64,000 nucleotides of DNA from Tenericutes bacterium ADurb.Bin087 (GTDB lineage Bacteria; Bacillota_I; Bacilli_A; RFN20; CAG-826): the NCBI GenBank assembly GCA_002070905.1, contig MWEF01000002.1, positions 9,297 through 73,296 on the forward strand, read 5' to 3'. This document shows positions 2,230 to 48,092 of this stretch, piece by piece (within the stretch, counting starts at the first letter, position 1; every line of letters begins with the position of its first letter). The translations under genes and the position numbers were made by a program. The notes below the pieces were generated by a model. It did no database searches and had not been told where the DNA came from. It saw nothing but the letters and a program-made list of their open reading frames with translations.

Positions 2230-3414
2230 TTAACTCCTTGTTAGTGTCCCAATACTTGCTTTCTCGTCTCCGATATCTTGGGCATACTTACTATATGCTT
2301 TGATTAGTCCTAAATTAACAGCATATGTTAAGTCGCGTGCGCCAATCGTATCAAGTTTAACGATGTATTTATCAGGGAATGAACGATCACTCCCAATTAT
2401 TTCTTCGTAGTTATAAATCGTGCTCCCGCCACCGACAAACAGCAGCGGATATTTATTTAAATTCGGCATATTTTGACTTTTGCCAACAATTTTAATTTCA
2501 CTTAAGACCTTTTGTAAGTGGCTTGTTAGGAACGCTTGACACGTCGTATAAATATCACTTAAGAACACTTTAATTTCTTCACCGCGTTCACCAATGCCAG
2601 TCGCAAGGGGGAAATTAACACTCACATTGCGATGATCAAGGCCAAAATCTTTTTTAAGCCGATCGGCTTCTTTTAATTCAAGTCCAAATTTTTGCGCTAA
2701 GAGATATGTTAAGTCATCACTACCTTCATTAATGATCCGTGAAAAATATAAGTTATGATTAGACACAAACGTAATTGAAGTTTGTTTGGCGCCAAAGTCC
2801 ACTAAGAAATATGTATTTGTGGCCGATGCTGGACTATTAAGTAATTCCGTTAATGCATATTTATCGGGATAAACTTTACGAACTTTTAATCCCGCTTTTT
2901 GCACCGTTTCAATATAGGAATTATAAATCCAAATTGGTAATACATGTAAGAAAGCTTCAACTGTCAGTGTATTACTTACTTCCCCTAATGGGAGTAAACG
3001 ATACACTTGTTCGCTTTCCGTCTTAAATACTTGCGGTAAAATCGCCACAATTACTTTATTTGGGTCAACACGATTCTTGCGGAAAAGGGCCATAATATTC
3101 TTAATATCAATCCGGTCAATCTTACTTGAAAGCGTGTTTGTCGTTTGTGTGCCTCTAAATACTTCAAAGTCAATCGTCGGTAATGCTAAAACGACTTCAC
3201 TAATCGCTTCGCCTAAAGTATCACGCACATCAGCGGTTAACACTTTAATCGCATTAATTACTTGATCAGGGGCAATAATTTCGCCGGCGCTGACAGCTTG
3301 TGAAAGCGCTACTTTATTTGCGTAAAGTACATATGGGCTGCCTTCAAGTTCATAGCCGACAACGAGTTTAACGGCACTGGCACTAATTTCTAACGTACTA
3401 ATTTTAATATCCAT
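2230..3414 (-). CDS. ftsA: cell division protein FtsA (actin-like ATPase)
   Basis: 394-aa ORF immediately upstream of ftsZ, 2-nt spacing. N-terminus ISTLEISASAVKLVVGY is typical of FtsA/actin-fold ATPases. Confidence 0.85.
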   Translation of the reverse strand: MDIKISTLEISASAVKLVVGYELEGSPYVLYANKVALSQAVSAGEIIAPDQVINAIKVLTADVRDTLGEAISEVVLALPTIDFEVFRGTQTTNTLSSKIDRIDIKNIMALFRKNRVDPNKVIVAILPQVFKTESEQVYRLLPLGEVSNTLTVEAFLHVLPIWIYNSYIETVQKAGLKVRKVYPDKYALTELLNSPASATNTYFLVDFGAKQTSITFVSNHNLYFSRIINEGSDDLTYLLAQKFGLELKEADRLKKDFGLDHRNVSVNFPLATGIGERGEEIKVFLSDIYTTCQAFLTSHLQKVLSEIKIVGKSQNMPNLNKYPLLFVGGGSTIYNYEEIIGSDRSFPDKYIVKLDTIGARDLTYAVNLGLIKAYSKYAQDIGDEKASIGTLTRS

Positions 3415-5804: not shown

Positions 5805-8185
5805 ATACCACGTACCACTACTTGTAATTTTTTCATTAATTCATCAACGACTTTATTCATCACGTCTTTAATTTCTTCTTCGACTAATGTCTTATTCGTA
5901 TCGCTTAATGTCAGGCTAAGCGCGACTGACTTTTTCCCTGGTTCATCTTTTAGCTTTGTGTAAACATCAAACACACTGACGTCACTTACTAACTTGCCAC
6001 CAGCTTTACGAATGACATTGATAATGTCTTTTACCGGTACATCTTCGTCAATAATGAGCGCGAGATCACGCTTAACAAACGGGAAGCGCGCAGGTGCATT
6101 AACTTTCGTTAAACTTGTCTTTAAGTTGAGCAAGGCACTTAAATTAATTTCACCAACAACAGCCTCACTACCTAAGAGTGCTTTTTCTTTTGCTAAAGGA
6201 TGGAGTTTACCAAATATCCCCACGACTTTACCTTGCACCTTTAAGAGCGCACTTTGTGCGGGATGAAATTCATCATTTTGGTGTGGATTTATCACAAATT
6301 CATAACGTGATTCATTAATGCCTAAATAATCTAAAATACTAACAACTACCCCTTTTGCATCATAAAAATCATACGTCCGCTTCCCTAATTCACCTTGGCT
6401 TAATTTGTTGCCATAAAAGGCAAACGCTAAATGTTCACCTTTATAATTCGTTGAAGTTATATTACTAATTTCAAAGATTGCAAAATCAGTTTGTTGCCGA
6501 CTAGCGTTATAAGTAAGCGTTTCAATAACACTTGGTAAGAGGTTAAGCCTTAACTCTGCTCTCACTGGTGTCATTGGGTGCTGCAGTTTTAAAGGTTCAT
6601 CATTATTTAAATACGTAAATGTTTGATTTTTGTCAGCATCTGTCAGAGTATACGTTAAAACTTCGTAGAGCCCATTCTCGCGCAATAACTTGCGGATATC
6701 ATAACGTTTAGCTTGAATATCATCATAACTTCCAACACACGTAAATAACCCTGGAATTTCATTACCAACATGGTCAAAACCTTGTAAACGAATGATTTCT
6801 TCGGCTAAATCGGCAAGACTAAAGAAATCTTGACGATAAAGTGGGAGATTAACACTTTTATCCGCGTTAACCGTAATATTTAAACGATTTAAAGTACTAA
6901 GCATTACTTCTTCACTAAAGGTAGTGCCCAGTAATTTGTTAATTTTATCAGCGGCAAAATAAATTCGTGGTTGTGCGGGTATATTCTTTTCGACAGTCAC
7001 TGTATTACTAAATTTAGCGTTAGGCACTAAGTCAAAAATAAGCGAGAGCGCTAAATTCATTGCTTCTTCCGTATTATAGAGGTTGACCCCTTTACCAAAG
7101 CGTCCACTAGCTTCGCTTGGTAGATTATGGCGGACAACACTCATCCGAATATGCGCGGTATCAAAGGCGGCGACTTCAATGGCGATGCGCTTCGTCTTTT
7201 CACTAACCGCGCTACTGCGCGCACCATTAATCCCCCCTAAACATAATACCTTGTCAGCATCATGAATAATTTGATCACCAGGCACAATGTGATATTCTTT
7301 ATCATCAAGCGCGATAAAAGTTGTTGTAACATCACTACTTACCACAAAGTGTTCATCTTTAACTTTGTCTAAATCATACATATGTAATGGTCTACCCGTA
7401 ACGAGCATCACGTAGTTGCCAATATCTACGATATTATTCACTGGACGATGGCCATGTTTGCGTAAAAATGTCGCTAACCAATCGGGGGAAGGCGCAATCG
7501 TAATATTACGTACTTCCGTTAAGGCAAAGATAGGCACTAACGGAGTCTTAACTTCGAGTTTAAGCTTTGTGGTAAACGACGGTTTAACTTCAATTTCGGG
7601 AATATTGTAATGAAGGTCAAAAATTGCTCCAAGTTCACGCACAATGTTATAAAGCGCTAGCATATCACTACGATTAGCGAGCGGCCTTATATCAAAAATA
7701 GTATCGTCTAATCCTAAATAATTTAAGACATCAGTATTCCCCACAGGCGCGTCATTATTTAACACATGAATTCCTTCAATATCTGCTTGACTTTGTAATT
7801 CATGCGGGACACCTAGTTCACTTAGCGAACAAATCATTCCTTCGCTTTGATAGCCTTTAATCGTGACACTTTTAATGTCCCCGGCTGGCAATTTTGCCCC
7901 ATCAAGCGCAACGATCACTTTTTGGCCACTAGCGACGTTTGGGGCACCACAAATAATGTTGCGTTTTCCTAATTTACCAACATCAACTTGACAAAAAGAA
8001 AGATGATCACTACCTTCGACTTTTGTACTTTTAATCACATGACCAATCACTAAATTTGTCCCACTCGCGAGTTTGTAATAGTCTTCGGTTTCAATCCCAG
8101 CAAATGTAAGTCTCTTGGCGATTTCTTCATCGCTAATATTACGTAAATCAATATATCGTTCTAATGCATTTCGTGATACTTTCAT
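5801..8185 (-). CDS. pheT: phenylalanyl-tRNA synthetase beta subunit
   Basis: 794 aa, with an N-terminal tRNA-binding domain, B3/B4, B5 and a C-terminal FDX-ACB domain. It lies immediately downstream of pheS. Confidence 0.95.
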   Translation of the reverse strand: MKVSRNALERYIDLRNISDEEIAKRLTFAGIETEDYYKLASGTNLVIGHVIKSTKVEGSDHLSFCQVDVGKLGKRNIICGAPNVASGQKVIVALDGAKLPAGDIKSVTIKGYQSEGMICSLSELGVPHELQSQADIEGIHVLNNDAPVGNTDVLNYLGLDDTIFDIRPLANRSDMLALYNIVRELGAIFDLHYNIPEIEVKPSFTTKLKLEVKTPLVPIFALTEVRNITIAPSPDWLATFLRKHGHRPVNNIVDIGNYVMLVTGRPLHMYDLDKVKDEHFVVSSDVTTTFIALDDKEYHIVPGDQIIHDADKVLCLGGINGARSSAVSEKTKRIAIEVAAFDTAHIRMSVVRHNLPSEASGRFGKGVNLYNTEEAMNLALSLIFDLVPNAKFSNTVTVEKNIPAQPRIYFAADKINKLLGTTFSEEVMLSTLNRLNITVNADKSVNLPLYRQDFFSLADLAEEIIRLQGFDHVGNEIPGLFTCVGSYDDIQAKRYDIRKLLRENGLYEVLTYTLTDADKNQTFTYLNNDEPLKLQHPMTPVRAELRLNLLPSVIETLTYNASRQQTDFAIFEISNITSTNYKGEHLAFAFYGNKLSQGELGKRTYDFYDAKGVVVSILDYLGINESRYEFVINPHQNDEFHPAQSALLKVQGKVVGIFGKLHPLAKEKALLGSEAVVGEINLSALLNLKTSLTKVNAPARFPFVKRDLALIIDEDVPVKDIINVIRKAGGKLVSDVSVFDVYTKLKDEPGKKSVALSLTLSDTNKTLVEEEIKDVMNKVVDELMKKLQVVVRGI

Positions 8186-9226: not shown

Positions 9227-9445
9227 AAGCGTTTCTCCTTTTATAAAATAAAAAAGCGTTCCCATAGGAACGACTTTCGTCGTGGTACCATCCTAATTTG
9301 CCACTCTTAGTTTTAACTTTAACGCTAGTTAACGGGTCATCAACCGGCTCCAAGGTGAATTCATGTCGCTTCTTTGTCGGTGCTTCCACCATCCCACCGT
9401 CGCTAGCCAAAGATGATTAAGACATTACTACTTCTCTTCAACGCC
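9227..9445 (-). ncRNA. T-box riboswitch leader of pheST
   Basis: Minus strand has GGATGGTACCACGACG followed by the hairpin GCGTTCCCATAGGAACG..TTTTTTATTTT. An upstream -10 TATAAT (GATGTATAATATG) lies at about 9440-9452. The track ORF 9219..9410 sits inside this leader. Confidence 0.6.
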
Positions 9446-38422: not shown

Positions 38423-38782
38423 ATGGCAAGAGTAAAAAGTTCACCGGTCACACGTGCCCGTCGTAAAAAAGTTTTAAAACAAGCCAAAGGTTACTTTGGT
38501 TCCAAAAGCTTACTCTTTAAAACTGCTAAAGAGCAAGTCATGCACTCCTTACGTTATGCTTATATCGATCGTCGTCGGATTAAACGTGATTATCGTAAAT
38601 TATGGATTAAACGGATTAACGCCGGCTGCAGAATGTGTGAAATTAGTTATAGCCAATTCATGCACGGCTTAAAATTAGCGAATGTTGATATCAATCGTAA
38701 AATGTTAAGTGAATTAGCAATTAATGATTTTGAAACATTTAAAGGTTTAACCGAAACAGCGAAAAAAGCACTCGCAAAATAA
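38423..38782 (+). CDS. rplT: 50S ribosomal protein L20
   Basis: 119 aa, [26 protein letters not shown], a typical L20. Confidence 0.95.
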
Positions 38783-38804
38783 AGTAAATATTTCTTTCTT
38801 AACA

Positions 38805-38840
38805 AAACTGGGAGTAGATTTATGTTTACTCCCTTTTTTA
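38805..38840. terminator. bidirectional rho-independent terminator (rplT and convergent PHP-gene operon)
   Basis: GGGAGTAgatttatgttTACTCCC is followed by TTTTTTA on the + strand. An A/T-rich run on the other side serves the minus-strand operon. Confidence 0.6.
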
Positions 38841-38908
38841 ATTTCTCCACTTTTAATAATTATTTTAAGGACAAACAGTAATTGAAATTTTTAATTAAAT
38901 CTTCTTAT

Positions 38909-41041
38909 TTAGTACTTCATGATAGGCCGTAAGCGTTTATTAGGTTCATCAATTTCAAATTCGCGAGTAAAATTTTTACCTATTTTCATTTTTTCAAAGG
39001 TGAAACCACGATTATTCATATCTAACATCATCTCGTAAAGTTTTAAATATAACATATCAGCTGTGTATTTAATCGATGGTTTTAGTTTTAAGTCATCAAT
39101 TCTTTTCTTTAATTGCTCTTTACTTAATAATAACGGTTCTTCTTTAGCTAACCCTAAACTTGTATAAAAAATCATATTAAAGTAATCAACATAAAACGCT
39201 AAAGGATGATAAAGTTTAAAGAAGGCAAATAGTAAACTGATTCTCTGATGTTCACTTCGTTCAGCGTCTTTGTAACTTTCTTTAAGGTGCGGTATACCAA
39301 GATTCGTTACTTCATCAGCACCTGAAACTATATCCATTAGTCTTTGTTCATTAATATCAATGTTATTAATGTTGACACCTGTAATTTGCATTAAATTACG
39401 TAATTTATATAAATAAATATCCGCAATTATATTAAATTCATACAGTGATTTTCGTAAATCATTATGATCAAAGTGCGTCATTTTCCATACATACTTATCA
39501 TTATTAAGATAATATTGCAGTGGAGTAAATTCATGCCACTTACGACCTTCAGGCAAGATAAAGATAGAAGATATATGCGGCATAGTTATCCTTTTAGTTT
39601 GCGCAGTGTAAAGCGCAATTTTTCTCACTTCTTCATCACTAACTGTTTTGACGTCTATTTCCTTCCACCCTAAAGTCTTTTTCGTCATATTAATTGCGGT
39701 GCTAATAGGAAAGGGTGTTATTTTCCCGCCTTTAACAACATTATCTTCGCCAAAATTTTCACGAAGATATTGAAGCGCTTTAAGGTGACCTTCTTCTTCA
39801 ACTTTTAAATAAAAGGCAGAGTCATCCGCATTATATGGAATAAAACCATTCACTGGACATAAAGGGTTAACGTTACTAATTCCTAAAAGATAGGCAAGAA
39901 AAGAACTTCCGTTTTTCTTATATCCGATAAATAAATAGCCATATTTCTTCATTAACTTCGCTATTTGATAATATATTAGTAAAACTGATGAATAACCTTT
40001 ATTTATCACATCATCTAATTCTTCCTTCATCCGTTTTTTTACTTCTCTTGGAAGTAAATCACCATATTTCTCTCGTGCTTTATTAAAACAGATTTCACTT
40101 AAAGTTTTATTAGCATTTTTAATTATTGGATAAGATGTTAATAAAGCATACGGCATAATTTGCGAAATCATATCGTTAATAAGGTTAGTATTTTTAATAA
40201 CTATTTCGTTAGCGAGTTCCTCCTCTAAAAACGAAAAACTTGCAAGCATTTCCTTTGTACTTCTAAAATGTTGATCTGGATTTTCAAAATATTCTAATTC
40301 GTTCCGTTCTTTTGGAGTTAAGGGATGGCGTCTTGTATAGGGAATTTGCGAATCAATTAAGACATCGCGACTTATTTTATGAACTTTATCAAGGTAATGA
40401 ACATCGCCTGTAGCAACTACTAGTTTTCCTAATCTTTTAGCACTATTAATAATTCTAACGATAGTGTCCTTTATAGATTTTTCATTATATTTTTCTATAT
40501 ACATATTTATTAAGTGCGAGTAGTTACTAGGTGGTTGAATTTCTAAATAATCATAAAATGAGCATATTTTTTCAAACACTTCTTCATCTTTAATCTGACT
40601 AGCGTAATCAAAGACTTCACCATTAAAACACGCTGAACCAATTAAAAGATTAGTGCGATATTTATTAATAACACTTTTCGGTAGTATCGCTTCTCCGTCA
40701 TGTAAATGCTTAGTGTTCGCTAGTGTTAATAATTCATAAAGTTCATTAATTCCTTGTTTATTCTTCGCTAATGCGATAGTGTGATAAATGGGTTCAAACT
40801 TTTTGTTGAATTTAGCGGAGAAAGTATCATCCCACATTAATAATTCAACTCCATAAATAATTTTAATGTCGTATTTTTGACCTGCTTCGTGCGCTGAATA
40901 AAATGACTGTACACAATTATGGTCAGTTATAGCAATGGCAATGTGTTCCATTTCTTTAGCTCTCTTACAATATTCGTCAATTGTTGTTACACCGTCTTGC
41001 TCTGACATATTTGTGTGTAAATGTAATTCTATTCTTTCCAT
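38909..41041 (-). CDS. PHP-domain protein fused to a catalytically degenerate PolC-like polymerase core (pseudo-polymerase; candidate nuclease effector)
   Basis: The N-terminal PHP motifs are intact (HLHTNMS, DG, ITDHN, GVE, CFNGE, VVATGDVHYL). Downstream, clear similarity to the PolC palm/fingers, recalled from memory of B. subtilis PolC (NGSSFLAYLLGISNVNPL, KRITMPHISSIFILPEG, THFDHNDL, FFKLYHPLAFYVDYF, NRGFTFEKM). The PDIDLNF catalytic aspartates and the KAHAAAY motif are replaced. Confidence 0.6.
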   Translation of the reverse strand: MERIELHLHTNMSEQDGVTTIDEYCKRAKEMEHIAIAITDHNCVQSFYSAHEAGQKYDIKIIYGVELLMWDDTFSAKFNKKFEPIYHTIALAKNKQGINELYELLTLANTKHLHDGEAILPKSVINKYRTNLLIGSACFNGEVFDYASQIKDEEVFEKICSFYDYLEIQPPSNYSHLINMYIEKYNEKSIKDTIVRIINSAKRLGKLVVATGDVHYLDKVHKISRDVLIDSQIPYTRRHPLTPKERNELEYFENPDQHFRSTKEMLASFSFLEEELANEIVIKNTNLINDMISQIMPYALLTSYPIIKNANKTLSEICFNKAREKYGDLLPREVKKRMKEELDDVINKGYSSVLLIYYQIAKLMKKYGYLFIGYKKNGSSFLAYLLGISNVNPLCPVNGFIPYNADDSAFYLKVEEEGHLKALQYLRENFGEDNVVKGGKITPFPISTAINMTKKTLGWKEIDVKTVSDEEVRKIALYTAQTKRITMPHISSIFILPEGRKWHEFTPLQYYLNNDKYVWKMTHFDHNDLRKSLYEFNIIADIYLYKLRNLMQITGVNINNIDINEQRLMDIVSGADEVTNLGIPHLKESYKDAERSEHQRISLLFAFFKLYHPLAFYVDYFNMIFYTSLGLAKEEPLLLSKEQLKKRIDDLKLKPSIKYTADMLYLKLYEMMLDMNNRGFTFEKMKIGKNFTREFEIDEPNKRLRPIMKY

Positions 41042-41095
41042 ATCTAAATTTCCTCTCTCTTTAAATTAATATTGTTTAAATGATTTAATTTATAA

Positions 41096-41551
41096 TTAAC
41101 GGTTTTCATTATTATTCCTACCTAAAATTTTTGCTAATAAAGAAAACACGAGTACTCCTAAACCGATGAATCCGCTGATTTGTAGTGCAGAATTAGGGTC
41201 AAAATAAGTGCCGGCGGGTTCCTCAATTTTCCAGCACGGATAAGAATCGTAGGTTGGTGGTACTACATCTAGCACGTATTCTCCAGTAACTATATGTACG
41301 TAACCGTTCCGAAATTTAACCCAAGGGTCTCTACCTCTTAATAATTCACAATCAATATCATCGCTTTCAAGCCGATAAAGCAGGTGTCTAGCGTGGCTCA
41401 AGCAATAATACATAGCAGTATTAAAATCTGAAAAAGTAATGCCTATAGCATCTTCTAATCTTTGAAATTCACTTTCACCACTATGAGCTTCTTCAAATTC
41501 TTCACGAATAAAACAAGGGCGCCCGTCATAACTAAAACCAGTGAAGCCCAT
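41096..41551 (-). CDS. small tail-anchored membrane protein of unknown function
   Basis: About 151 aa from the ATG with RBS AGGAGA; the track ORF starts one codon earlier at GTG (41552-41554). It has a soluble Cys/aromatic-rich N-terminal domain and a single C-terminal TM helix (ISGFIGLGVLVFSLLAKILG). Confidence 0.5.
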   Translation of the reverse strand: MGFTGFSYDGRPCFIREEFEEAHSGESEFQRLEDAIGITFSDFNTAMYYCLSHARHLLYRLESDDIDCELLRGRDPWVKFRNGYVHIVTGEYVLDVVPPTYDSYPCWKIEEPAGTYFDPNSALQISGFIGLGVLVFSLLAKILGRNNNENR

Positions 41552-41654
41552 CACGCGTAATCTCCTAATAAAAATGCCATTTATGAATCCTCCTATTTGT
41601 TACAATTTAGTTATAACATGTTAATTAGGACATAAAACGACATTAATGATTAAT

Positions 41655-42353
41655 TTATTTTTTATTACAATTAAAAATACAAATATTGACTTTTTCTTCT
41701 AACTTTGTTCCTTTTATGCGCGTTAATTTGAATAGTTTATTCATTTCATCTATCCATTCATCATGTGAAAGTGATTTATAGTCTTCAGTATTAAATTCGT
41801 ATCCATTTTCAAAAAGTAAATACACTAATTTGGCTTTATAACCTTTTTTTAGTAAAAAATCTAAAGCAATTATGCGATTCGCTAATTGATAACCTGCACC
41901 AGTCCAGTTACTTACTGACCGATTAATTTCGTATTCTTTTTGAACGGTTGTAATAACTTTAGTATTGTTTGCTATTGTATCAGGATCTTTCCAATCCGCT
42001 CCTGCTCCTTTTAATTCTCCAAGATGCGCTTTTGCTTCTACTAAAATGATGGTGCCGTCTTTCGAAATTCCAACCGCATCCCAATTTATCCCTCCTTTTC
42101 CGCAAGCCCAGTAAGTAGTCCATTCTTTATTAATCCCTGGGATAAATTCAAAATTTAGTATTTCTTTATCTTCTGGCCCATTAAAAGTAAAATCAAGCCA
42201 ATTAATTTCACTATCAACTTTAGCGGATTCAGCACTCGCCTCATTTAATTCATTACGATGCCAGCCAAGCATTCTTAGTAATTGATACTTTGATCCATAA
42301 CCAAACGCTAATTTATCACAAATATTTTTTTGCATTTCATTTATAACCTCCAC
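41655..42353 (-). CDS. hypothetical protein with a PD-(D/E)xK nuclease-like motif
   Basis: 232 aa; WDAVGISKDGTIILVEAKAH fits the D-x(n)-E-x-K restriction-endonuclease-fold signature. It has no other recognisable domain and is AT-rich. Confidence 0.45.
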   Translation of the reverse strand: MEVINEMQKNICDKLAFGYGSKYQLLRMLGWHRNELNEASAESAKVDSEINWLDFTFNGPEDKEILNFEFIPGINKEWTTYWACGKGGINWDAVGISKDGTIILVEAKAHLGELKGAGADWKDPDTIANNTKVITTVQKEYEINRSVSNWTGAGYQLANRIIALDFLLKKGYKAKLVYLLFENGYEFNTEDYKSLSHDEWIDEMNKLFKLTRIKGTKLEEKVNICIFNCNKK

Positions 42354-42394
42354 TACTTAAATAATTTATAAGAAACTCGAGATATAGAAGGTAA

Positions 42395-43111
42395 TCATTT
42401 TATATCTTTTTTAAAAATAAAAACTTTAATATCCCAATCCTTGATTAACTGATTAACATTAGGGTGCTCTTCTTTATTACGAAAATGTTCCGCTGCTGTT
42501 GAATCTTCGGGGATTAAAATCACTTTTCTAATCCTCGTGCAGGGGTTAATCTCCAATTTCTTAATATGTAAATCTTTTAATAGTTGTTTCTTCTTCTGGA
42601 TTAGTGACTCGTAATATGTTTGGATTTGGAGCGCACACTTAAGAAGGGTTTCAACGCTTTTATATTCCCCATCCTTTTTTACGCCTTTAACCTCAATTAA
42701 GTATAGTTCATCCTTCTTTTCGTCATACGATAATAAATCAACATCCACTCCAGTATTAGGAGAGATATTTAACTCACATTCAAACGGTTTTCCTAAATTA
42801 TCTGGTGACTCTTCAAACAAATCTTCCCCAAAAGAGTTATCATCATACCATCTGCGACATAATGCACGCTCAGTGCCTGGTTCCGCTTTACTTTTTCTCT
42901 TACGCATTTTAAATTCTTCCCTCACTTCGGTATAAGGGACAATATCATCTTTATGTTCCAAAATATATTCTGCAATAACTTCAGTATAAAATTCAGTTCC
43001 CTTTTTCGTCTTACCTGTATAGTTATTGAAATCCTTGGTATAAAACCCAACTTTAGGTAAAGCATTTTTAACCATTTCAATAATTTCTTCTTTACTATAT
43101 TTTTTAGGCAT
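42395..43111 (-). CDS. hypothetical protein with a PD-(D/E)xK nuclease-like motif
   Basis: 238 aa; VDVDLLSYDEKKDELYLIEVKGVK has the D...E-x-K pattern. Its ATG overlaps the regulator stop (TAATG), which indicates translational coupling. Confidence 0.4.
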   Translation of the reverse strand: MPKKYSKEEIIEMVKNALPKVGFYTKDFNNYTGKTKKGTEFYTEVIAEYILEHKDDIVPYTEVREEFKMRKRKSKAEPGTERALCRRWYDDNSFGEDLFEESPDNLGKPFECELNISPNTGVDVDLLSYDEKKDELYLIEVKGVKKDGEYKSVETLLKCALQIQTYYESLIQKKKQLLKDLHIKKLEINPCTRIRKVILIPEDSTAAEHFRNKEEHPNVNQLIKDWDIKVFIFKKDIK

Positions 43112-44001
43112 TAGCTATTCCCCCTCTTTATACTTATTATTTGGTTATTCAAGTATTTTAAGTATCGTTCTATAAAATCTTTATCTAAAAATGTGTACTT
43201 CTTTGTGCTAATTCTAAAAAGTGGATAGTATAATTCGTTTTCACTACTACTAGTGACGGTGTAAGTTAACTCTTCTTCATCTTTAGTACCTTTACCCTCA
43301 AAATATTTATCGAAAGTTAATAATGTTTCTTGGTCGTTACATTTAACACGTAATGTTGTTTCTTTTCCGTCTTTAATTCCATACATCGATGACTTTTTTA
43401 GAATTGTCTGTTCGATATTATCTTTTGGCATGAAAGCTTCTAATTGTTTAATATCACGCATAAACCGCACATCATATTTACGTAATTCATCATTATATGT
43501 GCCAAATAAGTAATAAGTGTGATTTGTAAGCACAATTTTATAGGGCGCAACTTTTAATGGGTTATCAAAATCACGATACATGAAACTTATTACTTTTTGG
43601 ACTTTGATAGCCTTTATAATTTGTTCTAAATTATCTAACACATCATTATCGATGTAATTATCTCCAACAATTGAATCCGTAATAACATAATTTGGTAATT
43701 CAGACAGAACTTTTTCAATACGTTCATTACTTCGCATCGCAATAGACATAGCAAGTACGATATTTTCGGGCATCGCAAAGCCTTTATCTAAAGGTGTCCG
43801 TAATCTGTAACCACCATAACGCCCTAATTTAGTCTCAATATCGAGTTCTATGATTGTATTTAAGTCTTCTAGATAACGACGAGCTTGACGATCACTCACT
43901 TCAAGATAATTTGCAATTTCTTTGATAGTGACCCACTTCGTGCGATTATGTAGTTGATTTAGGTACAAGAGCACTTTTAGTTCCTGACTAATTTTTGACA
44001 T
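43111..44001 (-). CDS. HTH + WYL-domain transcriptional regulator (BrxR/CapW-like)
   Basis: An N-terminal DeoR-type HTH (VTIKEIANYLEVSDRQARRYLEDL) is followed by GRYGGYRLR. The WYL domain shows ISFMYRDFDNPLKVAPYKIVLTNHTYYLFGTYNDELRKYDVRFMRDI. A C-terminal extension may be WCX-like. It is the first gene of the 5-gene operon. Confidence 0.7.
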   Translation of the reverse strand: MSKISQELKVLLYLNQLHNRTKWVTIKEIANYLEVSDRQARRYLEDLNTIIELDIETKLGRYGGYRLRTPLDKGFAMPENIVLAMSIAMRSNERIEKVLSELPNYVITDSIVGDNYIDNDVLDNLEQIIKAIKVQKVISFMYRDFDNPLKVAPYKIVLTNHTYYLFGTYNDELRKYDVRFMRDIKQLEAFMPKDNIEQTILKKSSMYGIKDGKETTLRVKCNDQETLLTFDKYFEGKGTKDEEELTYTVTSSSENELYYPLFRISTKKYTFLDKDFIERYLKYLNNQIISIKRGNS

Positions 44002-44063
44002 ATAAATCCTCCATAGCTTTAGGATAACAAACTATATAGGACATATAAAGGCATATTAAAAAA

Positions 44064-45245
44064 TTAAAATAATTCATCCTCACTATTATTTAGAGAAATA
44101 TCAACTTTTTTCGTATCACTAATTGCTTCACTAATAAGTGATTCGTAATCAAACTTGCTTTCAAAACGGAGTGCATCTTCTAATTTTGGGCTAGTGACAG
44201 AATTTGTAACAGGGAAAATCGTACAACAATCTTCATAAGGTAAAATGGAAATGGGATACGTTTGAATGCCCTTTGCAATCTTAATAATTTCATTTTTATC
44301 AACTGTCGCTAGTGGGCGAATAATTGGATAATTTGTTACTTCATTAATCACCACAAGTGATTCAAGTGTTTGACTAGAAACTTGGCCAAGTGAATCACCA
44401 GTGACAAGTACTTTATAGCCATGGCGCTTAGCAATAATGGTGCTGATGCGCAGCATCATGCGGCGCATTAAAGTAATCGCATACCCGCCTGTCGAGTGTT
44501 CATAAATCGCTAATTGGAGGTTAGTGAAAGGCACAACATAAAGCCTAATACACGGTTGATAGTTATTAAGTTTAGCAACAATGTTTTCAATTTTCTTTAA
44601 CACTTCTTCACTTGTATAAGGAGGAGCAGCAAAGTGGATAGCCGCAATTTTAATCCCGCGCCTAATCATTAAATAGGCGGCGACTGGCGAATCAATCCCG
44701 CCACTAAGGAGCACTAAGCCTTTTCCCGCGGCGCCAAGCGGATAACCGCCTAAACCATCATAACGTTTACCAACAACTAAAATTCGATTTGTATCAATCT
44801 CTAGTCGTAGTGGCAATTCGGGATCATGGACATCCACTTTAATCTCGGCATTTTTCAGAATGTGACTAGCAATACTACGGTTAACTTCATCACTGCGTAA
44901 CGGAAATAATTTATCCTTTCGTTTAGTAATTACTTTAAACGTTTTTGGTTTAAGTTCAAGCACAAGGCTAAGCACAAATTGTTTAACCTTTTCTAAATCT
45001 AACGGGAATTCAACAACTTCACTAATGGCATGGATTCCGCTGACATTTTGCAGCCGTTTTATAATTTCTTGCAAATTATTTTCTTGAATATTTTTTATAT
45101 AAATATGGTCATGTCTTGTTTCAATATGGACTTTAAAAGGCGCGCTAACTTCTTTAATGTTTTGCGTTAGTTGCCGGATAAAATCTCGTCTATTTTTGCC
45201 TTTAGTGTATAGTTCACCAAAGTGAATCATTACCATTTTACTCAC
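44064..45245 (-). CDS. thiI: tRNA 4-thiouridine(8) synthase ThiI
   Basis: 393 aa with a THUMP domain and a PP-loop (LLSGGIDSPVAAYLM). Confidence 0.9.
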   Translation of the reverse strand: MSKMVMIHFGELYTKGKNRRDFIRQLTQNIKEVSAPFKVHIETRHDHIYIKNIQENNLQEIIKRLQNVSGIHAISEVVEFPLDLEKVKQFVLSLVLELKPKTFKVITKRKDKLFPLRSDEVNRSIASHILKNAEIKVDVHDPELPLRLEIDTNRILVVGKRYDGLGGYPLGAAGKGLVLLSGGIDSPVAAYLMIRRGIKIAAIHFAAPPYTSEEVLKKIENIVAKLNNYQPCIRLYVVPFTNLQLAIYEHSTGGYAITLMRRMMLRISTIIAKRHGYKVLVTGDSLGQVSSQTLESLVVINEVTNYPIIRPLATVDKNEIIKIAKGIQTYPISILPYEDCCTIFPVTNSVTSPKLEDALRFESKFDYESLISEAISDTKKVDISLNNSEDELF

Positions 45246-46371
45246 GGCTATACTCCTTAATAATTTCGATTAATGCCTTACAGAATATGTCAACTTCTTC
45301 AAGGGTATTTTCCATTCCAAAACTGACACGGATTGAATTACTAGCGCGCTCTTCATCATGAGATATGGCATACACTGATTGACTCATAGTATGTAACTTA
45401 GCGCTACAGGAACTTGTCGTACCAACATAAATCCCCCGATTTTCTAAAGCATTAAGGACAATTGATGCCTTAATCGTCTTAAGTGAAAAATTAAAGATGT
45501 ATGGATTACTTTGTCCGAGAGAATTAATAACAAATAAATCTTTATATTGAGCAATAAAATTGTGAAGTTTAAGTTTTAAAGGATAAACATGATTAAAGTG
45601 GTTATCTATATTCCCTTTAGCGATTCGCACTGTTTTTGCTAACACAATATTAGCGGGCGCATTATGCGTTCCAGGTCGAATCCCTTCTTCTTGTCCCCCG
45701 CCATACACTAGTGGTTTTGGCTGTAAATTATTGCGGAGAATCAAAGCACCACTCCCTTTTAAACCACCGATTTTATGAGCGGAAAATGAATAAGCATCCG
45801 CAGCGTTAGGATGATATTCAAGTTTCCCCATCGCTTGCGTGACATCGCTATGGAAAATAACTTTAGGATATGGTTTTAAGTAGTCCCTAATTTTCCCCAA
45901 ATCAATAACATCACCTACTTCATTATTAACAACCATCACCGATACGAGTATAGTTTTATCATTTAGTAACGATTTAAAAACATCAAAATCAAAACCACCT
46001 TGGAAGCGAATCGGTACCTTGTGAATGATGGCCCCACGCTCTTGTTGTAAATACGCACAAGCTTCCCGGACGCTAGGGTGTTCGTAATCACTAATGATTA
46101 TTTCATTGCCTCTATTTTTATATGTTTCATATAAACCAATAATGGCAATATTATTAGCTTCTGTTGCCCCGCTAGTGAAAATAACTTTACCATCACGAAA
46201 TTTAAGCATTCTTAAAAGTTCTTCGCGTGCTTTATCTTGTAATCTTGCTACTTCACGGGCAAAAGTATGCATTCCACTAGGATTTGCATAATATTTATCA
46301 AGAATCTCATTATATGTTCTTAAAACTTCTGGATGAATTTTTGTTGTACTAGCGTTATCAAAATAAATCAT
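45238..46371 (-). CDS. cysteine desulfurase (class V aminotransferase, NifS/IscS/NifZ-like)
   Basis: 377 aa; FSAHKIGGLKGSGAL contains the PLP lysine, and FTSGATEANN is present. It is paired with thiI, as in Bacillus nifZ-thiI. Confidence 0.85.
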   Translation of the reverse strand: MIYFDNASTTKIHPEVLRTYNEILDKYYANPSGMHTFAREVARLQDKAREELLRMLKFRDGKVIFTSGATEANNIAIIGLYETYKNRGNEIIISDYEHPSVREACAYLQQERGAIIHKVPIRFQGGFDFDVFKSLLNDKTILVSVMVVNNEVGDVIDLGKIRDYLKPYPKVIFHSDVTQAMGKLEYHPNAADAYSFSAHKIGGLKGSGALILRNNLQPKPLVYGGGQEEGIRPGTHNAPANIVLAKTVRIAKGNIDNHFNHVYPLKLKLHNFIAQYKDLFVINSLGQSNPYIFNFSLKTIKASIVLNALENRGIYVGTTSSCSAKLHTMSQSVYAISHDEERASNSIRVSFGMENTLEEVDIFCKALIEIIKEYSRE

Positions 46372-48092
46372 TGTTTACGGTTTTGGTATTTCTTTAATTG
46401 TTCAATTGAATTTTCGTATGTATGTTTAAATAAGCCGTTAAAGAATCGTTGTTCTTCATCACGTAATTTAGCGTGTAATTCACTAAATTGTGGACGGAAT
46501 GCATTTAAGCTCACGATGACTTCTTCCGCTGAATGTGCGTATTTAACATCTGTGGTAATTACATCTTCAAGCCGTGTCGCTAATGCACGTAATTCATTTG
46601 TTAATACTTCAACTTGACTCACATCAATTGGTCGTTCACGAATAATCGTGCTAATATCACTAATCATTGCATAGCCACTATCAAAGTCTTGTTCAAAGTT
46701 TTGAACATACGACGGAACATTAAGTTTGCGTAATGTTACTTCTAATTCCTTAAAGCGTAAAAATAATACTTTACAAATCGCAAACCCATCTTCAACAATA
46801 ACGCGGAGTGATTCAATATATGTTTGAAATTCACGGACGAGTACTTCAACTTTCTTACTTTCACTTTGTAGTTGCATTACTTTCTCGACTAACACACTAT
46901 AAGGTTGCTTTGTCGCACTATGTAAGAACGCATCTAAACTGCGTTTAACCATCATCATCGTGTTAACATTCGTATTTGCTTCTTCAAGTTTCTTTTCATA
47001 TTCGGGGTTAATTAAATAATATTCCTTAACTTGTGGCATTCTATTTACTAGCCTAATATAACGTTGTTCTAATTCATTAACATGTAAATATGTTTTATCG
47101 TATTCAGCGGTAAATTCACGTTGTTTGTCAATTTCAACATTGAAACTATTCACTAATTCATCAATTGTATCGGCAATCTGATTTAATGTTTGTTCGACAT
47201 TACGTGTATCAAAGCGAATGAGTTGATCTTTAATGACTTCAAGCTGTTCATTAAAGTTTTCAATTTCAGCACTGACGCGTAAATGATGCAGCGGGACGTT
47301 ATAGGCCGTTGCTTCTTCATAACTTTTCTTAAGCGTCGCAATTTTTTCGGGAATTAAGACTGTTGCTTTGACAACTAACAACGGTAAGATTTGTAGAATG
47401 CGCTCTAGTTGATCATTAAACGTGCGAATTTTTTCTAAATAACTGCGGGCTTCATCGTAATAAGCACCATTTAGTGCATTATCATATTCTTTAAAGAGTA
47501 ACTCAATTTGGCTAAAAATCCGTTCAAAACTTGGTACACAAATTTCGAGTTCATCTTTGTGATCCCGATAAACATTTTTAATAATACGTAATTTCTCTTT
47601 ATCGTAGACACTCTCTTCACGAATTTCGGATTCGGGTTTAATCATATTTGTTAGATCTTTACTTAACGCTGTTACTTTACGTTCATAATCTAAAATAATC
47701 GGGCGATGTTCGTTGAACGCTTTTTTAAATTCTTTGTTCCCCGCGGCAAGCGCTTCATTTAAGATTTGAATTGATCGGCTCGCTTTACGGTCATCGACAT
47801 TCCGTAACTGTTCAAACCGCGCAAAAAATTCTTCATAAGCAGGGCGCATTAATAAATTAATATCACTGATTGCTTCAATGCGTTTAATATATTGAATATT
47901 TTCTCCAAGTAGTAGACTGCGAACGTATGAATATTTAATCGACAATGATTTTAAGACTTTACGGTTTTTCGTGCCTTGAAAGGCAAATTTACTTAAAATA
48001 AAGATTAAAACGGCGACAACAAGAATAATACTTGCCGCAATAAAGATAATATCAAGTGTATTTAATAATGTTACTACTTCCATAAGTCGCAC
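46368..48092 (-). CDS. ezrA: septation ring formation regulator EzrA
   Basis: 574 aa with an N-terminal TM anchor (IIFIAASIILVVAVLIFIL) followed by a long coiled coil. Size and architecture match EzrA. Confidence 0.7.
   Translation of the reverse strand: MRLMEVVTLLNTLDIIFIAASIILVVAVLIFILSKFAFQGTKNRKVLKSLSIKYSYVRSLLLGENIQYIKRIEAISDINLLMRPAYEEFFARFEQLRNVDDRKASRSIQILNEALAAGNKEFKKAFNEHRPIILDYERKVTALSKDLTNMIKPESEIREESVYDKEKLRIIKNVYRDHKDELEICVPSFERIFSQIELLFKEYDNALNGAYYDEARSYLEKIRTFNDQLERILQILPLLVVKATVLIPEKIATLKKSYEEATAYNVPLHHLRVSAEIENFNEQLEVIKDQLIRFDTRNVEQTLNQIADTIDELVNSFNVEIDKQREFTAEYDKTYLHVNELEQRYIRLVNRMPQVKEYYLINPEYEKKLEEANTNVNTMMMVKRSLDAFLHSATKQPYSVLVEKVMQLQSESKKVEVLVREFQTYIESLRVIVEDGFAICKVLFLRFKELEVTLRKLNVPSYVQNFEQDFDSGYAMISDISTIIRERPIDVSQVEVLTNELRALATRLEDVITTDVKYAHSAEEVIVSLNAFRPQFSELHAKLRDEEQRFFNGLFKHTYENSIEQLKKYQNRKQ

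Follow-up and report, generated by a model that had tools for sequence, protein, structure and literature searches.

The 64,000-nucleotide stretch of DNA analysed here (the window; contig MWEF01000002.1 of the Tenericutes bacterium ADurb.Bin087, positions 9,297 to 73,296) carries, between thiI and rplT, a cassette of five genes in about 5 kb that encode, in this order, a WYL-domain regulator, two nuclease-like proteins, a small tail-anchored protein and a derivative of the DNA polymerase PolC. As judged from sequence comparisons, the cassette is horizontally acquired and mobile, and it is made up of two units, one comprising the regulator and the two nucleases, the other the anchor protein and the PolC derivative. 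We favour the reading that it is a WYL-controlled, DNA-targeting defence system that restricts invading DNA, to which we assign a probability of roughly 45%, because of the turnover of its nuclease genes, its mobility, its low GC (guanine plus cytosine) content and the defence genes and mobile elements that neighbour it. Public records label these proteins 'hypothetical', 'PHP domain-containing' or 'WYL domain-containing'. We regard as established the reality of the genes, their folds and the architecture of the cassette (both well supported), the tail anchor as defined by hydropathy, the variable nuclease slot, the presence of a conserved box in two copies, and which active sites the PolC derivatives keep or have lost.

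Five constrained genes of low GC content

All five genes lie on the minus strand. The first encodes a winged helix-turn-helix (wHTH)-WYL regulator of 296 amino acids (aa; 43111-44001) with Pfam and PADLOC matches, and the second, whose start overlaps the regulator's stop, a 238-aa protein of predicted PD-(D/E)xK fold (42395-43111). A 226-aa protein with the same predicted fold follows (41655-42335, with an alternative GTG start at 42353), then a 151-aa protein that consists of a soluble domain of ~120 aa and a C-terminal hydrophobic helix (41096-41551) and, finally, a 710-aa PolC-derived protein with matches to PHP and to the alpha subunit of DNA polymerase III (PolIII-alpha; 38909-41041). The three small open reading frames (ORFs) had been singled out in a preliminary description made from the DNA letters, and all three were found where it had placed them, on the minus strand and under purifying selection. 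The peptides that it had quoted are present as well (VDLLSYD...LYLIEVKG in 42395-43111, WDAVGISKDGTIILVEAKAH in 41655-42353), and the third ORF does start at the ATG at 41551. Its GTG start for the middle ORF, in contrast, more likely gives way to the ATG at 42335, where homologues begin.

Selection was assessed as the ratio of non-synonymous to synonymous substitution rates (dN/dS) against a syntenic relative (L001), whose proteins are 73-93% identical to those of the window (73-91% for the three small proteins). This ratio came to 0.12 for the regulator, 0.55 for the 238-aa protein, which is the fastest-evolving of the cassette, 0.33 for the 226-aa protein, 0.12 for the 151-aa protein and 0.23 for the PolC-like protein, with thiI, as the comparison gene, at 0.10. 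Values of 0.12-0.55 in all five genes therefore mark them as constrained and expressed, and rule out decaying pseudogenes. The GC content of the cassette, which is 29-34% (38500-44000) versus 35-41% in the flanking housekeeping genes, fits horizontal acquisition.

Two new families with a predicted PD-(D/E)xK nuclease fold

Conserved residues and structural models give good support to the assignment of the 238- and 226-aa proteins to new, mutually unrelated PD-(D/E)xK families, for which nuclease activity is predicted. The preliminary description had relied on a D-x(10-15)-E-x-K signature in each of them, a pattern that on its own performs no better than chance, since it occurs in 17 of the 47 long ORFs of the window (36%) and in 45% and 78% of the shuffled versions of the two proteins. 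The motif becomes meaningful because its acidic and lysine residues are conserved across the families and because the AlphaFold models are confident.

The 238-aa protein has only 5 close homologues, and an exhaustive profile search extended this set to 385 relatives of equal length, 76 of which were aligned to measure conservation. Within this alignment E81 is invariant, D125, E140, K142, E154 and Y166 are present in at least 90% of the sequences, and at position 162, where the window protein has Gln, at least 90% have Glu. The predicted catalytic codons are those of D125 (42737-42739), E140 (42692-42694) and K142 (42686-42688), all on the minus strand. In the AlphaFold model (predicted local distance difference test score, pLDDT, 94.5; predicted template modelling score, pTM, 0.92) a helix at residues 81-91, strands at 108-115, 123-130 and 135-141, a helix at 156-171 and a strand at 193-201 succeed one another as an alpha-beta-beta-beta-alpha-beta core, with the conserved residues at the canonical places of restriction endonucleases, on consecutive strands. 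Foldseek returned weak matches to nucleases (Nt.BspD6I, XisH, Avs3 and HincII, E = 0.08-0.5) and no close solved or viral structure. Below the Pfam cut-off, NOV_C matches the protein across the motif (E = 0.018); it also leads the sub-threshold matches of the family, with 12 members, followed by DUF234, HSDR_N_2, YhcG_C and SduA_C and, further down, NERD, PDDEXK_1/9 and NucS_C. Domain fusions in distant relatives of the family were inspected too and proved uninformative.

None of the 214 homologues of the 226-aa protein carries a Pfam domain. Among 73 aligned sequences E58, D86, K102, Y149 and R154 are invariant and E100 is found in at least 90%, which places the predicted catalytic codons at 42078-42080 (D86), 42036-42038 (E100) and 42030-42032 (K102), again on the minus strand. 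The conserved residues fall on consecutive strands of the AlphaFold model (pLDDT 89.2), whose top Foldseek match is BstEII (E = 1.5e-4, probability 1.00), ahead of ACE1/Cas4, NucS/EndoMS, Avs3, SfsA and Card1.

The preliminary assignment of both proteins to the PD-(D/E)xK fold is thus borne out: a restriction-endonuclease-like core is seen in both models, the best structural matches are restriction or repair nucleases (weak ones for the 238-aa protein), and the sub-threshold Pfam matches of nuclease-family members fall to PD-(D/E)xK families (NOV_C, SduA_C, YhcG_C, NERD, PDDEXK_1/9, NucS_C). The two proteins had also been described as lacking mutual similarity, and at the sequence level this stands, with no BLAST match between them and with an hhalign alignment of the two families that covers the D...ExK core only (E = 0.013). 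A diverged duplication was rejected on the same ground, the alignment being confined to the catalytic core. Both proteins remain below the curated cut-off of every Pfam family (NOV_C 15.5 vs 22.1 bits, DUF7829 16.5 vs 28.6), and NCBIfam gave no match to either. More broadly, Pfam, NCBIfam, PHROGs and PADLOC hold no at-threshold match for any of the three small proteins, that of 151 aa included, sequence and profile searches of the PDB found none for their families, and the TM-scores of the nuclease models to solved structures do not exceed 0.34.

In their core fold, the two proteins resemble BstEII, NucS/EndoMS, the Cas4-like ACE1, Shedu SduA, NOV_C/DUF3883 and REase-ARP, with which they share the E...D...(E)xK arrangement on helix alpha-1 and strands beta-2 and beta-3 in a single domain of ~230 aa; the (E/Q)xxxY helix of the 238-aa family recalls RecB/Cas4-type enzymes in particular. 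Both lack Cas4-type iron-sulphur cysteines, and neither has a partner methyltransferase or a partner helicase. No methyltransferase domain, such as a type II restriction-modification system would include, was found among the five cassette genes or in their immediate flanks.

A duplicated box ahead of both units

The regulator matches WYL (1.5e-7) and HTH_11 (5.4e-7) in Pfam and WYL in PADLOC (2.1e-15), and Pfam WCX was not detected in the window's copy. Homologues (phmmer E <=1e-23) are present in all related loci for which the contig is long enough, and are 53-65% identical to the copy of locus L031.

A conserved asymmetric box, GCCnnTTTATGTCCTA, followed 7 nt on by TGnTAT, occurs twice per locus; its consensus over 21 sites (L001-L030) is aAaannGCCntTTTATGTCCTAnTTnntaTGnTATn. 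In the window, box P1 (GCCtttATATGTCCTA, 44037-44052, minus strand) lies 36 bp upstream of the regulator's ATG and is followed by the extended -10-like sequence TTGTTATCCT (44030-44021, minus strand), whereas box P2 (GTCgttTTATGTCCTA, 41626-41641, minus strand), an exact match to the 12-mer, is located in the 103-bp gap that precedes the 151-aa gene and is followed by TGTTATAAC (41618-41610, minus strand), an extended -10-like element that makes it a candidate internal promoter. The 16-bp box thus sits at the -35 position, ahead of an extended -10. Ten further loci have it ~45 bp ahead of their WYL gene, and 12 further loci upstream of the anchor gene or of a small gene before it; it is shared by relatives and non-coding. 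The preliminary description had raised the possibility of an internal promoter in this gap, which gains weight from the finding that a box shared with the regulator precedes the third ORF in 10 examined locus types.

Within the 64 kb only P1 and P2 match the box with 0 or 1 mismatch, and the regulon is therefore local; the occurrence of the same box before the regulator and the anchor gene argues for two co-regulated units under one local regulator. The box is probably the target of the WYL regulator. A standard sigma-70 scan found promoter-like sites to be no commoner than in shuffles and missed both boxes, because the canonical -35 is missing. A riboswitch or leader RNA in the 103-bp gap was also considered and dropped, as Rfam gave no credible match.

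Reciprocal inactivation of the PolC derivative

The 710-aa protein matches PHP (1.9e-25) and DNA_pol3_alpha (1.2e-16) of Pfam, as well as the PolC model of NCBIfam (2.8e-130), to which it aligns in 4 stretches with 436 bits against a cut-off of 873. It has no DnaQ exonuclease domain and so does not show the full architecture of a replicative PolC, which comprises that domain, an OB domain and a C-terminal HhH/tau-binding region. When aligned with the Geobacillus PolC structure 3f2b (8e-99; the alignment ends at about residue 962 of 1041), it proves to lack the 63-residue segment with the Zn finger and the DxD motif and to have Asn in place of the third catalytic Asp, and all nine metal ligands of its PHP domain are present. 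The counterparts in three relatives (L030 8455-10740, L021 6619-8603, L004 11417-13232) present the opposite picture, in that they keep the Zn finger and the motifs 'VPDIDxxFS' and 'KFDxLG' and have lost three PHP ligands. The alignments thus point to reciprocal inactivation, with an intact PHP domain and a lost polymerase site in the window and the reverse in the other three. Because the window copy is under purifying selection with its PHP ligands intact and its polymerase site lost, it is most likely a DNA-binding PHP phosphoesterase or exonuclease rather than a polymerase.

Related loci share a plan and vary in the nuclease slot

Related loci were collected as contigs with homologues of any of the three small proteins and were re-annotated with profiles built for this work. 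They comprise 17 locus types from Erysipelotrichaceae-like Bacilli, which share one highly conserved WYL regulator and a common plan of regulator, one or two nuclease-like genes, tail-anchored protein and PolIII-alpha-derived proteins.

The slot after the regulator is occupied by the 238-aa family in the window, L004, L006, L007 and L031, by REase-ARP/PDDEXK_13 in L019, L027 and L029 (1.7e-18), and by a family of ~300 aa with the motif 'PPHMDA...FFECKC' in L014, L018, L021 and L025, the last of these families also supplying the second gene in L004, L006, L007 and L031. The 226-aa family is found in the window and in L012; L017 and L030 contain singletons with a D...ExK of their own, and some loci have other proteins at this place. 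In addition, L018 has a 271-aa nuclease-like gene of the 'SSSRFC...EFKCHE' family (2529-3344) inserted after the promoter box and ahead of the WYL gene, so that the gain and loss of nuclease genes extends to both flanks of the regulator.

Further variation is seen downstream. Between slot and anchor gene, some variants encode a HAD_SAK_2 phosphatase (PF18143; L004 9839-10345, L006 8091-8612, L030 6137-6658; 6.8e-25), which hints at nucleic-acid end processing. After the anchor gene, and usually overlapping it stop to start, most relatives have a member of a family that we call X (320-468 aa; for example L014 6408-7805, L017 8441-9844 and L029 3453-4859), in which a degenerate PolIII-alpha palm forms the N-terminus and a new domain of ~110 aa (GDYGNYPRGR...HYTHD) the C-terminus; the latter also exists as a stand-alone 116-aa gene (L012 7750-8100). 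X can be followed by a protein with PHP and PolIII-alpha domains, either whole or split, or by a fingers/HhH protein. The window's cassette is the shortest version, with no X, no member of the 300-aa family and a single PolC derivative of 710 aa.

Across hosts, the cassette occupies different chromosomal sites, with at least six sites of insertion, and its relatives are neighboured by an integrase, Rep_trans and an AlwI restriction enzyme, by IS605 and by KilA-N. In L012 (3524-6026), a homologue of BnzB of the Bunzi system (1.2e-89) and a PDC-M09A candidate defence protein (1.2e-65) lie directly upstream of the variant that consists of WYL and 226-aa genes. A phage or plasmid origin was considered and rejected, as no relatives of the 151-aa or the 238-aa protein were found in IMG/VR or PLSDB. 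The exception in these collections is formed by distant relatives of the 226-aa protein, which on viral contigs adjoin ParB-type DNA methylases or a WYL-WCX regulator and which we count towards the defence context.

A defence role weighed against its alternatives

WYL regulators are known to control defence systems and to sense single-stranded DNA (ssDNA; PMC9122601, PMC9122588, PMC11662680). In the mechanism that we propose, the regulator would bind both boxes, and binding of ssDNA from phage or plasmid replication, or from DNA damage, to its WYL domain would switch on both units, on the model of CapW, DriD and PafBC. Both nucleases would then cut DNA, and the PolC remnant would bind the resulting 3' ends or primer-template junctions, which its PHP domain would trim, with the anchor protein holding the PolC module at the membrane by its C-terminal helix and contacting it through its Cys/His domain. 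The net outcome would be the restriction of invading DNA.

Among the closest parallels are the wHTH-WYL-WCX regulators of the BrxR/CapW type found beside phage-defence systems (PMC9122601, PMC9122588, PMC11662680), in which, as here, the first gene of the locus codes for a protein of ~295 aa that combines an N-terminal HTH with a WYL domain, the regulator adjoins co-oriented nuclease genes in variable, mobile contexts, and operator-like boxes are only local. The cassette differs from them in that its downstream genes match no known defence system, its box is asymmetric, is present twice and serves two units, and its regulator has no detected Pfam WCX.

Several observations weigh against a defence role. 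The four proteins encoded downstream of the regulator have no PADLOC match, only the regulator being recognised, and the term 'defense operon' used in the preliminary description is accordingly plausible and not demonstrated. Neither a methyltransferase nor any other self-protection gene is present in the cassette, and the Foldseek matches of the 238-aa protein are weak (best E = 0.08). DNA-damage regulons, too, are run by WYL regulators (PafBC, DriD, SiwR), the HAD_SAK_2 phosphatases of some variants fit end repair too, and the PolC-like protein of L030, L021 and L004 resembles an exonuclease-less, possibly error-prone polymerase, as would suit a role in repair or damage tolerance. Finally, the distribution is narrow, the anchor gene being found in 3 of 185,579 species genomes.

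Much of this evidence would fit a damage-inducible repair or tolerance module that would be, in Firmicutes, the counterpart of the PafBC and DriD regulons and of the ImuA-ImuB-DnaE2 mutasome, and in which the WYL protein would act as an ssDNA-triggered activator, the nucleases would incise or process lesions, PHP and HAD domains would clean 3' ends, and an exonuclease-less PolC paralogue would fill gaps or bypass lesions (the window's copy binding and trimming instead), with the anchor protein and X as accessory factors. At activator-type WYL promoters, such as those of PafBC and DriD, a motif takes the place of the -35 element ahead of an extended -10, just as the box does in the cassette. 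PafBC, DriD and SiwR are WYL activators of non-SOS DNA-damage regulons (PMC11804915, PMC10853764, PMC10693628), with the WYL regulator upstream of DNA-metabolism genes that include a C-family polymerase paralogue, as here, and they differ from the cassette in that its regulon is local rather than global, its hosts are Erysipelotrichaceae-like Bacilli, its nucleases vary and the window's polymerase is dead.

The mutasome, as summarised in PMC12926913, offers further likenesses, namely inducible genes (as we propose for the cassette) and an inactive ImuB beside DnaE2, which the degenerate palm of X recalls; in addition, the PolC-like protein of L030, L021 and L004 lacks a DnaQ exonuclease and retains the DxD, the third Asp and the Zn finger. 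The cassette differs in that its polymerase is of the PolC type rather than DnaE2 and its dead paralogue belongs to the C family rather than the Y family. The window's protein, moreover, is not the competent, proofreading-less C-family polymerase of a mutasome, the residues for which are kept in L030, L021 and L004, and no RecA-like ImuA or inactive Y-family ImuB domain was found in the window's cassette or in the relatives scanned. A repair module would also have to accommodate a window version that lacks both an active polymerase site and X and is nevertheless under purifying selection, a slot filled by unrelated nuclease families, which is unusual in repair pathways, a patchy and mobile distribution with low GC content and defence or mobile-element neighbours, and a regulon that appears purely local. 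On balance, we consider a repair role less probable than defence and yet a serious rival to it.

A less probable alternative, to which we attach small weight, is that the genes are neighbours in a small island and otherwise independent, with the nucleases as solitary restriction-type or toxin endonucleases that each act alone under the WYL repressor, and with the anchor protein and the PolC remnant as an unrelated module. Indeed, the 226-aa family also occurs alone (L009-L011) or with WYL only (L012), and its distant relatives on IMG/VR viral contigs (27-31% identical) adjoin ParB_N-N6_N4 DNA methylases (L033 4613-6678, L034 4597-6645); two separate promoter-like boxes split the cassette into two units, and the anchor gene of L027 has no polymerase-like gene after it. 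Yet wherever a locus type is long enough for a judgement, both units are preceded by one and the same regulator family and box, the gene order persists over at least six insertion sites and down to regulator identities of 53-65%, and no contig of sufficient reach was found to have the anchor protein but not the regulator. On a further viral contig, L036 (5785-8302), such a distant relative of the 226-aa protein is encoded immediately behind an HD-domain protein, with a WYL-WCX regulator two genes downstream.

The 151-aa protein as a predicted membrane anchor

The 151-aa protein has 42 homologues, all of which are at least 54% identical to it and confined to Erysipelotrichaceae-like metagenome-assembled genomes. 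Its hydrophobic helix (41123-41179) corresponds to residues 126-144 when counted from GTG 41554 and to residues 125-143 when counted from the ATG, and reaches a Kyte-Doolittle mean of 2.19 over 19 residues, compared with 0.54 for the next-best segment of the protein. The preliminary description had predicted a single C-terminal helix of this kind, and by hydropathy it is kept in 22 of the 22 family members, with means of 1.43-2.44 against at most 1.15 elsewhere in these proteins; a short basic tail usually comes after it, GG[KR][KR] being the commonest form. By this measure the protein is tail-anchored, and its insertion into the membrane is predicted. The soluble domain has a mean column identity of 69%, whereas the sequence of the helix is poorly conserved. 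C14, H87 and C107 are invariant in the family and H12, H24 and H54 nearly so, and these residues may form a metal site or an active site.

Because the soluble domain is strongly conserved and the gene is translationally coupled to PolIII-alpha-derived genes, as indicated by the overlap of its stop with the start of the polymerase-like gene in L014, L017, L018, L029 and L025, a role as anchor or adaptor fits the protein better than that of the membrane-disrupting abortive-infection effector envisaged in the preliminary description. To that effector role, in which the protein would oligomerise via its helix, depolarise the membrane and kill the infected cell, we give little credence (a judgement on the 151-aa protein alone, not on the whole cassette), since the single hydrophobic helix conserved in all relatives, its richness in small residues (SGxIGLxA), which makes helix-helix packing conceivable, and the position of the gene in a WYL-controlled unit are set against a soluble domain that is the most conserved part of the cassette (dN/dS 0.12), the coupling to polymerase-like genes and the lack of similarity to any PADLOC or Pfam effector. 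In L031, the anchor protein is reduced to 60 aa (5837-6019), with a DSYPCW motif and the hydrophobic helix, and its gene overlaps the start of the X gene; this form may be either a minimal functional one or a remnant.

In general terms, an anchor paired with a DNA-binding partner recalls Kiwa, a two-part system made up of the membrane protein KwaA and the DNA-binding effector KwaB, where a small membrane component is likewise combined with a cytoplasmic DNA-binding one. The cassette differs from Kiwa in showing no sequence or domain similarity to it, in having a single C-terminal helix instead of a polytopic sensor, and in the polymerase-derived nature of the partner.

The gap upstream of the 151-aa gene contains, as the preliminary description had it, an AGGAGA (41566-41561) and a mini-ORF of 9 codons, MAFLLGDYA* (41551-41580, minus strand), which has an AGGAGG 8 nt upstream, the strongest Shine-Dalgarno sequence of the gap, and whose TGA overlaps the ATG of the 151-aa gene. 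This peptide corresponds to MAFLLG(R)GFTGF, with which the proteins of relatives begin in frame: L017, L018 and L007 encode MAFLLGRGFTGF / MAFLLKRGFTGF in frame with the anchor protein. Because relatives have MAFLLGRGFTGF in frame, the mini-ORF is a relic of an ancestral N-terminus, separated by a small indel, and a regulatory leader was rejected in favour of such a frameshift relic. The TGATG arrangement of mini-ORF and anchor gene is also found in L001 and L020 and suggests coupling by termination and reinitiation.

Novelty and significance

The cassette is not described in PADLOC, Pfam, NCBIfam or the literature searched, in which we found nothing relevant on a system of WYL and PolC/PHP proteins or on 'REase-ARP'; in the same databases and literature we likewise found no description of the combination of PolC-derived and tail-anchored proteins, the duplicated box or the reciprocal inactivation of PHP and polymerase sites. 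WYL-controlled nuclease loci and the PD-(D/E)xK superfamily are known already, and the two nuclease families are new. There is a sizeable chance that the cassette is a new system altogether. As a tentative proposal, with a real though less than even prospect of being right, it would be an undescribed, ssDNA-triggered, two-promoter WYL system of Erysipelotrichaceae-like Bacilli, built on domesticated PolC fragments and interchangeable PD-(D/E)xK nucleases, its polymerase-derived parts being an exonuclease-less PolC paralogue (polymerase-active and PHP-dead, or the reverse), a degenerate palm paralogue and a dedicated tail-anchored Cys/His protein.

If true, this would amount either to a new anti-phage or anti-plasmid mechanism that senses replicating DNA ends at the membrane or to a Firmicute analogue of the mutasome. 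A defence role would make the cassette the first system we have found that recruits a PolC-derived protein, whereas a repair role would show how Firmicutes without ImuABC might build an inducible polymerase module. The reciprocal loss of PHP and polymerase sites among the variants constitutes a natural experiment on which of the two activities is required. Three families labelled 'hypothetical' gain a testable assignment, two as PD-(D/E)xK nucleases and one as a membrane anchor, and the cassette provides a compact experimental system in which the regulator and two operator-like boxes are defined and the nuclease slot is swapped in nature.

Flanking genes

On the regulator's side, the cassette is flanked in the window by thiI (44064-45245), a cysteine desulfurase gene (45238-46371) and ezrA (46368-48092), all on the minus strand. 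On its other side, rplT and infC run convergent with the cassette genes. The space that separates the converging ends of rplT and the PolC-like gene contains a GC-rich hairpin with a T-run behind it (38810-38833), which is likely the terminator for rplT.

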